Of a stretch of DNA of 64,000 nt, positions 4,325-62,762 are shown in pieces (the stretch's first letter is position 1; each line of letters begins with the position of its first letter). The stretch is taken from positions 43,586,001-43,650,000 of the forward strand of contig OZ024751.1 in assembly GCA_964016885.1 (NCBI GenBank), given 5' to 3'. This DNA is from Eledone cirrhosa. Lineage: Eukaryota. A model generated the notes under the pieces. It did no database searches, had not been told where the DNA came from, and saw nothing but the letters and a program-made list of their open reading frames with translations. The translations under genes and the position numbers were made by a program.

Positions 4325-4512
4325 ATATATGTGTATATATATATATATATATATATATATATATATATATATATATATATGCAAAAGTTCTATTTAAAAT
4401 TGTTGGGATACAACAAGTAAATATTTTTTATAACTGATATAAAGCACTCGACAAGTATTTGGAGTAGATATACGATATTAATAAATGGAAACTATATTTA
4501 TAAAACAATATT

Positions 4513-4577
4513 TATTTCATTATACATATTTCAGGGATACCAAATTAAATTATGGTATGCCTTCATCAGACAAAATA
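4513..4577 (-). ncRNA. Type I hammerhead ribozyme, family A (minus-strand arm)
   Basis: Reverse complement of 4769-4833. Confidence 0.8.
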
Positions 4578-4768
4578 CAATATATAACAGTTTTACAAAT
4601 AAGCTTTGACGTACCCCATTAAAATGCAACCATTGTTTTTGGAAGTGTCCTTAACACTATGATTTATTAAAGTAATATAAACAAATCACTATCCGGATGG
4701 CTTCCAAAAACAATGGTTGCATTTTAATAGGGTACATCAAAGCTTATTTGTAAAACTGTTATATATTG

Positions 4769-4833
4769 TATTTTGTCTGATGAAGGCATACCATAATTTA
4801 ATTTGGTATCCCTGAAATATGTATAATGAAATA
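4769..4833 (+). ncRNA. Type I hammerhead ribozyme, family A
   Basis: tattttgt-CTGATGA-aggcatacca..tggtatccct-GAAA-tatgta-TA-atgaaata; 8-bp stem I with two G-U pairs, stem II, near-palindromic stem III, AUA triplet. Confidence 0.8.
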
Positions 4834-4894
4834 AATATGGTTTTATAAATATAGTTTCCATTTATTAATATCGTATATATATATATATTTATTG

Positions 4895-4945
4895 CACCCT
4901 TGCAAGCAGGGAAGAGCGGACGTAAAATGATGATGATGATGATGA
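4895..4945 (+). mobile_element. Solo 3' tail of RTE family 2 / SINE 1
   Basis: cacccttgcaagcagggaagagcggacgtaaaat(gat)n, matching 13033-13075. Confidence 0.8.
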
Positions 4946-5164
4946 TATATATATATGTGTGAGTGTGCATATATATGTATGTATATATATATATATATAT
5001 GTATATGTATGTATGTATGTATACACACTTCAACAGCATTCTAATAAAAGTGTATACCTTTTTGGGGGTGTATGTATGCATATGCATATGTATATATGCA
5101 CATATATATGTATGTATATATATGTGTGTGTGTATATATATATATATAACCACTAAGCCATGAA

Positions 5165-5510
5165 GGCACATGGCTTAGTGGTTAGAGCATTGGGCTTGCA
5201 ATCGAAAGGTTGTGAGTTCAATTCTCAGACTGGGTGATGTGTTGTTTCCTTGAGCAAGACACTTTATTTCACATTGCTCCAGTTTACTCAGCTGTAAAAA
5301 TGAGATGATAGGGATCCCAGTCCCTATCATTCCACTGCAAAGTGGTCGTGGAGGTGCCACGGCAAAAAAGCACCCAGCACTCACTGTAAATAAGGTTGGT
5401 GTTAGGAAGGGCATCCAGCTGTAGAAATCAAGCCAGAATCAGTTCCCGTCCTACCCTTGCAAGCAGGGAAAAGCGGACGTAAAATGAAATGATGATGATG
5501 ATGATGATGA
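5165..5510 (+). mobile_element. tRNA-derived SINE family 1 (CORE-like body, RTE-type tail)
   Basis: A box TGGCTTAGTGG, B box GAGTTCAATTC, CORE-like tgtgttgtttccttgagcaagacacttta, tail shared with RTE family 2, (GAT)n. Confidence 0.9.
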
Positions 5511-5789
5511 TTTATAAAATATATATATATATAAGCATTAAAAAAAAAAGAACCAAACTCTGCAAACAGTTTTCAGTGTAATTTCAATAGTAACATTTCC
5601 CTGCACCACAATCAATCAATGTCCTACAATCTCAGCATGTTTTAATAGACTTCCACACCTACACCTAGGTAGTATTTTAATTTTATTAATGTATGCCATA
5701 CTAAAATGTGACACTGCTCTCTTATTAATAGATTTCAATATTTATTGGGTGTCTAATTCTTTAAAGCATTGGTTTGTTAGTCGGTTGGC

Positions 5790-6330
5790 TGGCTGGTTGA
5801 TTGGTTGGTGTGTTTGTTGTGTGTGTTGGTTGGTTGGTGTGTTTGTTGTGTGTGTTGGTTGGTTGGTGTGTTTGTTGTGTGTGTTGGTTGGTTGGTGTGT
5901 TTGTTGTGTGTGTTGGTTGGTTGGTGTGCTTGTTGTGTGTGTTGGTTGGTGTGTTTGTTGTGTGCGTTGGTTGGTTAGTTGGTGTGTTTGTTGTGTATGT
6001 TGGTTGGTTGGTTGGTGTGTGTGTTGGTTGGTTGGTTGGTGTGTTTGTTGTGTGTGTTGGTTGGTTGATTGGTGTGTTTGTTGTGTGTGTTGGTTGGTTG
6101 GTGTGTTTGTTGTGTGTGTTGGTTGGTTGGTGTGTTTGTTGTGTGTGTTGGTTGGTTGGTGTGCTTGTTGTGTGTGTTGGTTGGTTGGTGTGTTTGTTGT
6201 GTGTTGGTTGGTTGGTGTGTTTGTTGTGTGTGTTGGTTGGTTGGTTGGTGTGGTTGTGTGTGTTGGTTGGTTGATGATGTGTGTTGGTTGGTTGGTTGGT
6301 TGGTGTCTTTGTGCTGTGTGTTGGTTGGTG
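5790..6330. repeat. Compound (GT)/(GTTG) minisatellite, ~31-bp unit
   Basis: Repeating gtgtgttggttggttggtgtgtttgttgt. Confidence 0.9.
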
Positions 6331-59699: not shown

Positions 59700-60540
59700 C
59701 CTTCACTACCATCATTGCTACCACCACCATTGGCACTACCTCCACCACTTCCACTACTACCACAGTCAACACCTTCACCATAATCTCCACCACTACCCCC
59801 ACAATCATCATCACCATCTCCACGATAATTACCACCACCACCACTGTCACCACCATAACACACCACCACCACCATCACCACCACCACTGTCGCTACCATC
59901 ATCATCACCACCACCACTGTCACCATCACCACCATCGCCACAATAATTACCACTACCACCACAATCATCACCATCACTCCCACCATCACCACCATCACCA
60001 TCACCACCACCACAACACACCACCACTGCCACCACCATCACCATCACCACCACCACTGTCGCTACCATCACCACTGTAATGGTGTAAGAAGTATTTCTGA
60101 GTTTCCTTTCTGTTATATTTATAAAGTTGGTTGTTTCTCCTGTTATTCATGTTTGATGGCAGAAAAATAGTTATTTCTGTTAATGTACGGCCTTAAATAG
60201 TATCACCTTGGTGATGGTGGTGGTGGTGATGGTAGCAATGATGATGATGGCAGTGGTGATGGTGGTGGTGGTGGTGATGGTAGCAATGATGATGATGGCA
60301 ATGATAATGGTGATTGTGGTGGTGGTGGTGGTAGCAATGATGATGATGGCAGTGGCAATGATAATGGTGATTGTGGTGGTGGTGGTGGTGGTAGTGATGA
60401 TGGCAGTGGCCATGATAATGGTGATGGTGGTGGTGGTGGTGATAGTAGTGATGGTGGTGGTGGTGGTAGTAGTGATGGTGGTGGTAGTAGTGGTGGTGGC
60501 AATGACAATAGTGGGTAGTAGTGATGTTGATGGAGGTGGT
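59700..60540. repeat. (CAC/CAT) tract followed by a (GTG/ATG) tract
   Basis: 59700-60075 CAC-rich, 60210-60540 GTG-rich. Confidence 0.85.
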
Positions 60541-60650
60541 GATAGATTTTTTTCTGTGGGGAGTCGGGTATAGGACCAAGTTCCCCTAGTGGGTAGGGGG
60601 ACTCGTTTCTAGAACACTACTTGCCTTCAGCCTGTACCTTCCTTCCTTAA

Positions 60651-61063
60651 CCCTTTAGCATTTACATTACTCTATATATATATACTATTGTATTTTTGTG
60701 CTTTATCTTACATAATTATCTGATAATATCGAATCTATGAGATTTTGATATCTATTTTGAGAACGTGGATTGGCAGTATCGGTAGAGGGTCGGACACCGT
60801 GCTTTGACGCATAGAGTTATGGCCCTTGCCATTCTGAGTTCAAATTCCACTGAGGTTAACTTTGCCTTTCATCCTTACGGGGTCGATAAAATAAAGTACC
60901 AGTAATGCACTGGATAATTGCTGGCCTTGTGCTAAAAGTAGAAACAATTATTTATTTTGAGAAAAATATCTTAACATCAGTATGAGTGGCCGGTTATGGA
61001 TGGTTTGAACAGAAAGAAGTGAGAAAATTCTGGCCAGATATGGCCGGTTTAAATGCTAAAGGG
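60651..61063. mobile_element. piggyBac-like MITE with nested SINE
   Basis: TTAA-ccctttagcattta...taaatgctaaaggg-TTAG; 14-bp perfect TIR. Confidence 0.75.
60764..60952 (+). mobile_element. SINE family 2, full length, with 11-bp target-site duplication
   Basis: A and B boxes; tattttgagaa at 60753-60763 and 60953-60963. Confidence 0.9.
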
Positions 61064-62125
61064 TTAGGGTGACAAGATGACCAAATGGTTAAGCTGTTTG
61101 ATACAATGTTTGCAGTGTATGTTCTGCCACCCCAACACACAACTTAACTCGTATGCAACACAGGAAAAACAGACATTAAATGATGATGATGTACATGAAT
61201 GTGTGTATGTTAGTGTGTGTGTTAGTGTTAGTGTGTGTATGTGTGTTCGTATTAGTATGTGTGTGTTTGTGTTAGTGTGTATGTGGATTACAGTGTGTTA
61301 GTGTGTGTGTGACTGCAGTGTTTCTGTTAGTGTGTGTTTGTGGACTGCACTTGTAACTCAAAAGTGCAACAATGTTGTGATGTGTTGCATTGATTACACC
61401 TGAGAATTACACACACACACAAGCCTATGGTATACTCAGCCACTTTGTTACACATTAATATAATAACTAAGTAGACTGCTCAGTCGATATAACAACAGAG
61501 TCATTATATGTTGTTCTCAATGGGAGAGTCCGTCATACACCTTAACTAATTAAGAGAGAAAATCTTCTACAGGTAATTAGTAGAACATGGACAAATAGAT
61601 TATAGACAGATGTTTCAAACGACAAATCAATTCTCACAGTACAGTTTCTTCTTTGCCTTAATTCTTTCGTCTCGTTCAACCTTTTGCATGTTCTACATGG
61701 TTTTAATTAGCAATCCGCTGTAGATAAACTAAACTACAGTGTATTCTACATGTGTAGGTGTGGCTTGTTTGTAAATATGCAAACATACCAACCCACCCAA
61801 ATCACCTACTCTCTCTCTCTCTCTCTCTCTCTCTTTCCCTTTCTCTCTTTTTCTCTCTCATATATATGTGTGTATATATATATATATTTTTTTTTTTCAA
61901 ATTCTTTTAATTTATACATTATCTTCCAACGGCTTTCAACCTCTCTATGTAAAACAATATATCTTCTCTCAGTTATAAAAACTATCTCTTTCTCTCTATC
62001 ACCCATCTCTCCCTCTCCACCTTTACTCTCATCTCCTCCCCTTTTTTCATCCTTTCCACCCCCCCCCCCCCTCTCTAAATAAAATATTTTTCCCAATATC
62101 ACACATCAATCTAAAACTACTTTTC

Positions 62126-62295
62126 ATATGTTGATTTAAAACTGCACTATCCACAAGTGTTTTTTAGCCTTCATATCATGTTCTCCTGTTTTATCTGATG
62201 AAAACACAAATATTATTGCATGATGATGTTTGTTTTTGAAATGCGCATAATAAAATACATGGAACTCCTTTAACCATCTTTTGATCTTATATATT
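62126..62295 (+). mobile_element. Hammerhead element, family D copy 2
   Basis: Nearly identical to the reverse complement of 14930-15095. Confidence 0.85.
62188..62256 (+). ncRNA. Type I hammerhead ribozyme, family D
   Basis: gttttat-CTGATGA-aaacacaaatattatt..gatgatgtttgttttt-GAAA-tgcgca-TA-ataaaat; 7-bp stem I, palindromic ATGCGCAT stem III, predicted cut after 62249. Confidence 0.85.
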
Positions 62296-62372
62296 ATATA
62301 TATATATATATATATGTTTGTATGTAAAATGTAAACAGAAATAACAACACATTCGGTATATATATATATATA

Positions 62373-62533
62373 TAACTGCTCTGTAGAACAACTGATGTTA
62401 TTACATTGAGCTATTTATCTTACTGGTAATAAGGTAGTAATCAATTACTGACCTTCACTGTTTAGGGTTTAAAATATACATAACTATAAAAAGTTTTAGT
62501 ATATACATAACCATAAATAGTATCCTTAATATT
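62373..62533. mobile_element. TA-embedded insert, family C copy 2
   Basis: Homologue of 21824-21987 with the same boundaries. Confidence 0.7.
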
Positions 62534-62560
62534 ATATATATATATATATATATATATATA

Positions 62561-62762
62561 AAACAAAGGAAATGTGGTAAGGAACCAGATGGACCATAAC
62601 GCACCAGAGTACTCAATACTTAGGGTAGTAGAGTGGGAAATAGGAGAAAGTATGACCCCGATGGCAGAGCTCAAGCCATTTCGACGGCTATTTCTGGACT
62701 ATTTAGTCCAGAAATAGCCCTCGAAACGGCTTGAGCTCTGCCATCGGGGTCATACTTTTTCA
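62561..62762 (-). mobile_element. Fold-back element, family B copy 2 (3' half of hammerhead only)
   Basis: Arms ~62647-62701/62704-62758, tail 62561-62646 homologous to 53071-53148. Confidence 0.85.

Follow-up and report, generated by a model that had tools for sequence, protein, structure and literature searches.

Element copies in the window

The window, that is, the whole 64-kb stretch of Eledone cirrhosa DNA under analysis, contains copies of element families A, B, E, F and G and of a sixth family, C. Family A is represented by a fold-back of two inverted pLTR ends at 4380..4873 (- strand), with its long (tailed) end at 4380, its short end at 4873 and hammerhead cores at 4569 (-) and 4777 (+); its hairpin 1 (4443..4465, -) is formed by an ACTC arm (4465-4462) and a motif strand (4453-4443) that fold with a 2-nt bulge. 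Two further family A fold-backs lie at 36674..36902 (+), a short copy with hairpin 1 at 36817-36839 and the hammerhead core gone, and at 52429..52785 (+), with hammerhead cores at 52598 (+) and 52497 (-) and hairpin 1 at 52704-52726. The family B fold-back at 52830..53148 (+) carries a U3-A8 hammerhead near 52964, GAAAC at 53029 and hairpin 1 at 53077-53103, while a short fold-back of this family occupies 62561..62762 (-; hairpin 1 at 62634-62608). Family G has left a fold-back stump at 53161..53293 (-), made up of an inverted short end and tail with a one-mismatch hairpin 1 (53252-53196), and a minimal stump at 21257..21324 (+; start approximate), which retains the motif (21278-21288) and has lost the 5' arm of the hairpin by truncation.

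Families E and F are ORF-less. The family E copy (11304..11642, -) is a 5'-truncated piece of a 615-nt tandem unit, with hairpin 1 at 11401-11373 and hammerhead helix III from 11592, the core being missing; it stops 3 nt short of the expected start of hairpin 2. The family F copy (46866..47089, -; upper bound approximate) is a tail-only piece of a unit of ~430 nt with its hairpin at 46965-46939. Family C is present as short-end copies at 14923..15102 (-; hammerhead core at 15028, tail absent) and 61887..62294 (+; core at 62195). These two islands were rejected as a motif-free hammerhead control because both are short-end copies, and tailed family C copies elsewhere bear the hairpin.

Hammerhead folds, with helices paired by eye, are predicted in all of families A, B, E, F and G, with canonical cores in A, U3-A8 cores in B, E and F, and CAGAAGA (A at position 4) in G. 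The description of E, F and G as ribozyme-less in the earlier note thus fits the truncated window copies and fails for the families, given the predicted U3-A8 folds of E and F and the CAGAAGA fold of G. An Rfam search of the window gave no hammerhead among the best 150 of 505 matches, which were microsatellite-driven and far below gathering scores, and the family G 5' region had no Rfam match.

An oriented motif ahead of TA runs

The earlier note had listed nine sites of an 11-nt motif, TRTYGAGYVCT, with coordinates and strands that proved correct in every case (9/9). Eight of these, together with a new site at 10020-10030, make up the nine exact matches in the window, against 0.46 ± 0.70 expected, and nine or more matches were seen in none of 100 shuffles; the ninth listed site (53196-53206, family G, -) is a one-mismatch site, as had been stated. 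With one mismatch allowed, 16 matches were found against a background of 15.3, so that only the exact pattern exceeds chance in the window. The proposed spacing of about 35-75 nt to the TA-abutting end was also borne out, as the TA run begins 35-73 nt past each of the nine listed sites. Upstream of the new motif, at a distance of 15 nt, stands an ACTC arm (10005..10030, +), and no clean TA run lies behind it; this is likely to be an old, decayed copy.

Since the pattern had been derived from the same nine sites, an out-of-sample test was performed on unselected genomic DNA, in 40 segments of 10 kb placed at round coordinates (400 kb in total). Among 23 exact matches, TA lay 25-80 nt downstream in 21 and upstream in 5, whereas about 200 column-shuffled motifs gave on average 2.7 matches, with downstream TA in 7%, confirming the suggested bias in position and orientation. 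Genome-wide, the motif followed after 30-60 nt by a 10-nt TA run gave 357,182 matches and the reversed pattern 1,029, figures which are pattern counts and not copy numbers, as each long TA run is counted several times.

A bulged hairpin with the motif as one of its strands

The 11-mer supplies the 3' side of a stem-loop with a bulge (RCTC-stem-loop-stem-TY bulge-GAGY-VCT), in which compensatory changes are present. It makes up only half of this hairpin and is not a linear site. Covariation was analysed in 55 hairpins belonging to 33 of the 44 non-host families, by a shuffle that ignores relatedness and with both hairpins of a family counted. The first pair above the bulge is paired in 53 of 55 (36 C-G and 15 T-A) versus 41.3 ± 1.6 after shuffling, and the second and third pairs in 34 and 37 of 55 versus 23 and 22, while wrong bulge registers gave pairing in just 1-7 of the 55. 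G-U outnumbers A-C by 10 to 4, a slight asymmetry that constitutes a weak RNA-specific signal. Within the host genome, the outer pair is A-T in families A, B and J and G-C in E, F and G, and is broken in family H. Enrichment of T at position -6 (35/55) and of A at -5 (32/55) was observed 5' of the stem in the non-host hairpins.

Minimum-energy folding gives the bulged shape for four window hairpins. Their predicted stability is low (-3 to -8 kcal/mol, z -1.0 to -3.0), the upper pair of family G hairpin 2 is absent from its minimum-energy fold, and folds of the entire 5' regions of families G and H did not recover the hairpins.

Assignment to Hydra-clade Penelope-like elements

Families A, B and G, which the earlier note had regarded as otherwise unrelated, are ends of Hydra-clade Penelope-like retroelements (PLEs) inserted into (TA)n. 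Each has a single ORF of its own, encoding an RT followed by a C-terminal GIY-YIG endonuclease, with 42-51% identity over the C-terminal ~220 aa. An oriented, conserved cis element linked to the machinery that mobilises hammerhead-bearing PLEs is upheld; a single shared enzyme is not. E, F and G do belong to one system with the other families, and only the ORF-less E and F would need an enzyme in trans. Two held-out families found by protein, J and H, carry variant hairpins at the corresponding position.

The CxCX5C linker ahead of the endonuclease is present in A, B, G and H and was not found in the J copy examined; CxxC ahead of the conserved E and CxH past the conserved N occur in all five proteins, and no CCHH was seen by eye in the endonuclease core of A, G, B or H. 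SDKT (DKT for DKG) is found in A, G and J, as checked where the sequence reached, B being a fragment. The Hydra clade, as characterised in the available text of Craig et al. 2021 (PMC8557442), is alike in its single RT and C-terminal GIY-YIG ORF, DKT, CxCX5C, and CxxC and CxH around the conserved E and N with no CCHH, and likewise in its pLTR hammerhead (a predicted fold in the families here), its targeting of (TA)n, its partial tandems, its inverted 5' copies and its one-sided tail. The Eledone cirrhosa families differ from that account in tails of 60-110 nt rather than 30-40 nt, in RWR, a conservative variant of the clade's RWK, in A and G, and in the deviant hammerhead cores of B, E, F and G. 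Estimated from ORF and UTR, G (~3.2 kb) and A (~3.9 kb) also exceed the length of Hydra elements, which that text describes as 'generally' short (~<3 kb), a tendency and not a strict criterion. Stylophora proteins are among the protein homologues found at 35-54% identity; Pfam matched neither the A nor the G protein. Both families are young with many intact frames, the best 122 matches of family G being 97-100% identical.

The clade concerned is Hydra and not Neptune. A Neptune-type partner was considered and rejected, as the best Pfam GIY-YIG loci of the genome lack the motif at their ends: from 30 loci taken, 3 without a readable frame were set aside, and 1 of the 27 tested matched the hairpin descriptor, this being an inserted G copy. 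Readings as Helitron, Crypton or tRNA-SINE were given up after the Hydra ORFs had been linked.

Duplicated hairpins and the positions of copy ends

Full-length A and G elements and an H read-through each carry two hairpins between hammerhead and ATG, and the family E unit also has two. Hairpins 1 and 2 are about 55-110 nt apart, and hairpin 2 mostly lies about 6-50 nt ahead of the ATG. This last position would suit hairpins that chiefly control expression, through translation of uncapped ribozyme-cut RNA, protein feedback or an internal promoter (the hairpin strand resembles a Pol III B box), with AU-rich patches alone setting the ends. We regard this as highly improbable, as the hairpin is kept in the ORF-less E and F, with E arrays stopping 3 nt short of hairpin 2, covariation with an upstream arm is not expected of a linear promoter box, and many further AU patches in the UTRs are unused as ends.

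Genomic 3' ends lie mostly 2-7 nt 5' of hairpin 1 (short end) or of hairpin 2 (long end), and the Penelope 'tail' therefore corresponds to the spacing between the two hairpins. Ends were mapped ahead of stems at 2 nt in 25 and 3 nt in 18 copies of family G, at 3 nt in 11 and 12 copies of family H, at 5, 3 and 7 nt in 11, 6 and 5 copies of family A, and at 3 nt in 4 copies of family E; copies that were unmapped or without a TA run were left out (A 28/52, G 30 of at least 79, H 7/33, E 8/12). Among 18 testable non-host loci, 9 ended at 2-5 nt and 1 at 11 nt, and 8 diverged elsewhere. Inverted insertions, classified in pairs chosen independently of their ends, combine one long and one short end in 52 of 57 cases, the exceptions being 3 long+long and 2 short+short.

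On balance, we favour the reading that Hydra-clade PLEs carry the hairpin twice, the motif being its 3' strand, that their copies end mostly 2-7 nt before one hairpin or the other, and that the hairpin acts as RNA, binds the RT and so sets the start of copying. Identical end positions and conservation are also predicted if the hairpins mark an RNA cut or end that lies a few bases 5' of the stems, is produced by a host nuclease or the element's protein, and is followed by ordinary 3'-end priming. This is unlikely, since two independently cut RNA pools alone would not predict the strict long+short pairing, and the sole PLE assayed starts internally, with added 3' sequence leaving product size unchanged in the reported experiments (PMC11167929).

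It is also conceivable that the hairpin works as DNA, its structure or sequence in the cDNA or donor copy being recognised by the GIY-YIG endonuclease, which would cut just 5' of it at resolution. The weak RNA-specific signal noted above would be compatible with this, as would the tail reported to be necessary for endonuclease recognition in D. virilis (cited in Frangieh et al. 2024, PMC11167929) and the tail attribution to EN-mediated resolution in the relevant text of Craig et al. (PMC8557442). Such a mechanism nevertheless needs cDNA running past the hairpin and then trimming at a different hairpin for each end; element ends adjoin TA runs and not motif DNA, and internal RT initiation already accounts for the Poseidon tail in vitro, according to the Poseidon results available (PMC11167929). 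We thus consider a DNA-level role quite unlikely.

A proposed model for hairpin-directed initiation

Judged from sequence, the hairpin likely sets the copying start by positioning internal, target-primed initiation. Read-through transcription of a partial tandem would place both hairpins on one RNA, (TA)n would be nicked by the GIY-YIG domain, and the nicked 3' end may pair with the UA-rich patch directly 5' of a hairpin, from where the RT would copy. Because copying would begin 5' of the hairpin, the insert would omit the hairpin used as start; priming at hairpin 2 would copy hairpin 1 and yield a tail, and priming at hairpin 1 a tail-less end. More speculatively, one event may prime both target ends, one per hairpin, to provide the inverted, one-tailed layout. 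It is a tentative and rather doubtful extension that a dimeric RT-endonuclease on two hairpins of one RNA primes both (TA)n ends, with the ~30-nt hairpin as a portable, clade-wide start signal for an RT related to telomerase, sufficient for ORF-less retrozymes to ride along; the tail would then equal the hairpin spacing, and inverted one-tailed insertions would arise directly.

Structured RNAs bound by an RT fix the start or stop of synthesis in hepadnavirus epsilon and the telomerase-RNA stem elements, and the bulge of epsilon is the template for protein priming. Compared by description, the hairpin differs from epsilon in that priming would come from nicked target DNA, at a start outside the stem.

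The closest assayed system is PAc, the Anolis carolinensis Poseidon element, for which the portion of Frangieh et al. 2024 (PMC11167929) drawn on here describes a tail between two internal RT start sites, an RNA requirement up to +172 though copying begins at +111-118, an AT-rich target and a predicted dimer. These internal starts and the need for RNA 3' of them count in favour of an internal-start hairpin. What the families here present beside PAc is a duplicated bulged hairpin in the 5' UTR, directly 3' of each end; the PAc start site reportedly lacks homology to the cut DNA, contrary to the UA pairing proposed here (PMC11167929).

Such a signal would explain the long-puzzling one-sided PLE tail, and bears on PLE RNA choice, on the origin of inverted, one-end-tailed insertions and on RNA recognition by the closest telomerase relatives. 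Craig et al. (PMC8557442) call for mechanistic work on PLEs, and the binding motif is narrowed only to a 172-nt region in the text of Frangieh et al. (PMC11167929) considered here; with a duplicated, covarying hairpin and ends at fixed distances, exact point mutations can be defined. RT-based insertion tools might also benefit from a movable internal start signal.

Recurrence of the hairpin and its retention in ORF-less units

Hydra-type loci from marine metagenomes have a twin hairpin in 28 of 48 cases and at least one hairpin in 39 of 48, with two antisense. Clear hairpins occur in three of six Hydra consensus sequences in File S7 of Craig et al. (PMC8557442), including coral and sea-cucumber elements; Hydra-1_Ajap has two, and Hydra-1_Amil and Hydra-1_Crog merely degenerate versions. 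A search with five 9-mers gave four terminal matches in the small Hydra consensus file, and three matches in the Naiad/Chlamys files, none at an element end, matches spanning line breaks being missed. No description of the hairpin was found among the publications searched, and the available text of Craig et al. 2021 (PMC8557442) leaves it unmentioned alongside consensus sequences bearing it.

The hairpin is also retained in the tandem units of E and F, which lack an ORF and each have a predicted type I hammerhead fold; in this they are like the metazoan non-LTR retrozymes as described in the accessible text of PMC7229834 and bioRxiv 10.64898/2026.07.22.740005. By analogy, E and F are likely moved in trans by PLE proteins. 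No common cis signal is given in those portions of the retrozyme papers (PMC7229834; bioRxiv 10.64898/2026.07.22.740005), whereas E and F share the hairpin with autonomous families, making it a cis signal common to autonomous elements and animal retrozymes. The family F tandem of ~430-nt units was seen in one locus (L345). Family E, for which an 18-mer pattern search of the genome gave 1,782 matches, has identical adjacent units, a longest ATG frame of 47 aa and a period of 615 nt, compared with the 170-400 nt stated for retrozymes in the text available from Cervera and de la Pena 2020 (PMC7229834).

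Motif placement and the elements that carry it

All nine occurrences of the 11-nt motif TRTYGAGYVCT claimed in the earlier note were located in the window, near the TA-abutting 3' ends of families A, B, E, F and G, and the exact pattern is found 9 times there against 0.46 expected. The proposed bias in position and orientation was confirmed in an out-of-sample set of 400 kb of the genome, taken at round coordinates: a TA run lies 25-80 nt downstream of 21 of the 23 exact matches and upstream of 5, whereas column-shuffled motifs gave a mean of 2.7 matches, 7% of them with a TA run so placed. 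Genome-wide (3.0 Gb), motif plus TA gave 357,182 matches and the reversed pattern 1,029, long runs being counted redundantly. One further site with one mismatch (44598-44608) lies some 20 nt ahead of a stretch rich in TA and just after a short sequence resembling the end of family J; it is possibly a decayed relative.

In the window, the A, B and G islands are fold-backs. The inverted copy of each element's end halts shortly before the motif, leaving the motif in an additional segment found at only one end. A protein fragment with the hallmarks of the Hydra clade of Penelope-like elements, as set out by Craig et al. 2021 (PMC8557442, section 11), was met by chance in two loci, and its 3' end matches, in reverse complement, the beginning of island G. 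A search with the G fragment returned 87,969 candidates; identity in the best 122 is 97-100%, and several contain a 713-aa frame. Family A has its own ORF of Hydra type (738 aa), as does B, of the same type as G. Over the C-terminal ~220 aa, A, B and G are mutually 42-51% identical, and two families found via the protein, H and J, show 32-39% identity to these and to one another. Motif tests on the sequences assign the elements to the Hydra clade. Downstream of the ORF, 30 loci of G have ~920 nt and a hammerhead fold; after the fold, either a TA run begins directly (short end) or there are ~85 further bases that include the motif (long end).

At 52429-53293, insertions of A, B and G adjoin with only short TA runs between them; every insertion leaves behind TA targets for the next one. 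Hydra-type elements were also observed in 20 loci (L319-L338) of bacterial assemblies from sponge, clam and coral associates, most likely as host DNA contamination. The window further holds three young copies of a LINE-type reverse transcriptase element, which we take to be RTE-like (1889-4393 and 13899-14969, minus strand; 24913-26150, plus strand); they are 5'-truncated at TA runs, one has an 835-residue open frame, and they bear no relation to the motif.

The motif as one strand of a bulged hairpin

RCTC, complementary to GAGY, lies upstream of 8 of the 9 motif sites, the ninth being truncated. The arms are ACTC/GAGT in A and B and GCTC/GAGC in E, F and G, with TY of the motif as a 2-nt bulge and TR paired with the bases following RCTC. 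Four window hairpins take this bulged shape in minimum-energy folds (-3.0 to -8.2 kcal/mol; z -1.0 to -3.0).

As an independent set, 98 Hydra-type loci were collected from marine metagenomes and animal-derived contigs in prokaryote assemblies; 88 have a match to the C terminus, 57 of these a hammerhead core, and 40 at least 110 nt past the core. The motif (at most one mismatch) occurs in sense in 26 of these 40 and in antisense in 2, mostly 60-82 nt past GAAA, with two sites ~160 nt out, one of those inside a neighbouring element. For covariation, hairpins were detected solely from GAG.VCT plus the closest CTC upstream, which yielded 55 in 33 of 44 families. Pairing at the three positions above the bulge is seen in 53, 34 and 37 of the 55, compared with 41.3, 23.1 and 21.9 in 5,000 shuffles that ignore relatedness; alternative bulge registers are paired in 1-7.

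The six Hydra consensus sequences in File S7 of Craig et al. (PMC8557442) were checked for the motif. Hydra-2_Amil has an exact match at its end, inside a perfect hairpin, and in Hydra-2_Ajap and Hydra-1_Ajap the hairpin is a variant whose bulge reads TA or TC; it is degenerate in Hydra-1_Crog and Hydra-1_Amil, and the Hydra-1_Obim consensus halts ahead of any tail. We regard the motif hairpin as genuine and as a cis element new to a known retroelement class.

Twin hairpins and insert ends

At junctions where a pLTR runs on into a following ORF, the hairpin is present twice, the second copy 18 nt upstream of the ATG in A and G. Family E has two hairpins per unit. After 3 of 51 non-host loci were dropped for too little flank, at least one hairpin was found in 39 of 48 and two upstream of the ORF in 28, with 2 in antisense. 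Across all families, the ACT linker after hairpin 1 is often followed, ahead of the long end, by a second, family-specific hairpin that shares no sequence; it was seen by eye and appears in whole-region folds of A and H. The upper part of hairpin 2 of family G (L433:1358-1386) reads C-UUCG-G, the classic stable RNA tetraloop, although the minimum-energy fold leaves that pair unclosed.

TA-bounded ends were placed on the read-through sequence by a strict method that left a large share of copies unmapped. Mapped ends, before hairpin 1 at short ends and hairpin 2 at long ends, precede a stem by 2 and 3 nt in G, 3 and 3 nt in H, 5 and 3-7 nt in A, and 3 nt in E (hairpin 2), and hence the hairpin adjoining an end lies outside the inserted DNA. 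Among 35 non-host loci tested, 26 aligned and 8 of these reached a contig end; of the 18 left, 9 end 2-5 nt before the stem, one at 11 nt, and 8 diverge at internal differences. Inverted insertions, in a set not picked by ends, are long plus short in 52 cases, long plus long in 3, short plus short in 2 and unclassified in 3 (binomial p = 3e-11 versus one half); all 10 from the unselected sample are long plus short.

Craig et al. 2021 (PMC8557442), Frangieh et al. 2024 (PMC11167929), Li et al. 2026 (bioRxiv 10.64898/2026.07.22.740005) and Cervera and de la Pena 2020 (PMC7229834) have between them already described the tail, the inverted pLTR, the pair of start sites and the origin of retrozymes from PLEs. 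No description of the twin hairpin, its placement relative to the ends or the long-plus-short rule was found in the consulted parts of these papers or elsewhere in the literature searched, and the G 5' region gave no match in Rfam.

A putative signal for cDNA start

Frangieh et al. 2024 (PMC11167929) showed that cDNA synthesis by a Poseidon protein begins at two internal sites, which bound the tail, and that RNA 3' of the start is required. By likeness to Poseidon, the simplest reading is that each hairpin may be this 3' RNA element. The reverse transcriptase would bind the hairpin and begin copying a few bases 5' of it. At that point the sequence is UA-rich, with T at -6 in 35 and A at -5 in 32 of the 55 hairpins, and could pair with nicked (TA)n, possibly in a two-ended priming event. 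Cleavage of the RNA beside the hairpins, recognition of their DNA form by an endonuclease, or a role in expression is less probable. Weighing against the hairpin as a start signal are the weak folds, the slight G-U evidence and whole-region folds of G and H, in which the hairpins were not recovered; a precise test of this role is available.

ORF-less families and hammerheads

Family E consists of 615-nt units that lack an ORF and lie in long tandem arrays. Such arrays (L369-L398; for example G000:C1:13091187-13100429 on a host-genome contig) hold 15-20 near-identical units over ~10 kb and each ends at the same base ahead of a TA run, a form as expected from rolling-circle copying of circular RNA. 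The ~430-nt unit of F is tandem in one locus, and across 30 loci no Hydra-profile hit was found on the upstream side of the F match. Both families, whose islands the earlier note called ribozyme-less, have a predicted hammerhead fold with a U3-A8 core (paired by eye), lost from the truncated window copies. This core, with long helix II inserts, is seen in B, E and F (L111-L140, L375, L354), and these hammerheads were missed by standard CUGANGA scans and by the earlier note. In F (L339-L368), 20 of 30 copies fail a test for sequence upstream of the predicted cleavage site, mostly starting no more than ~25 nt past it, as if copying ran off ribozyme-cut RNA, though the query may bias this. In nearly all copies of G (L081-L110; window 53161-53293) the core reads CAGAAGA, where A replaces U4, a position that is normally invariant; since this family is young and very abundant, full ribozyme activity may be dispensable for it.
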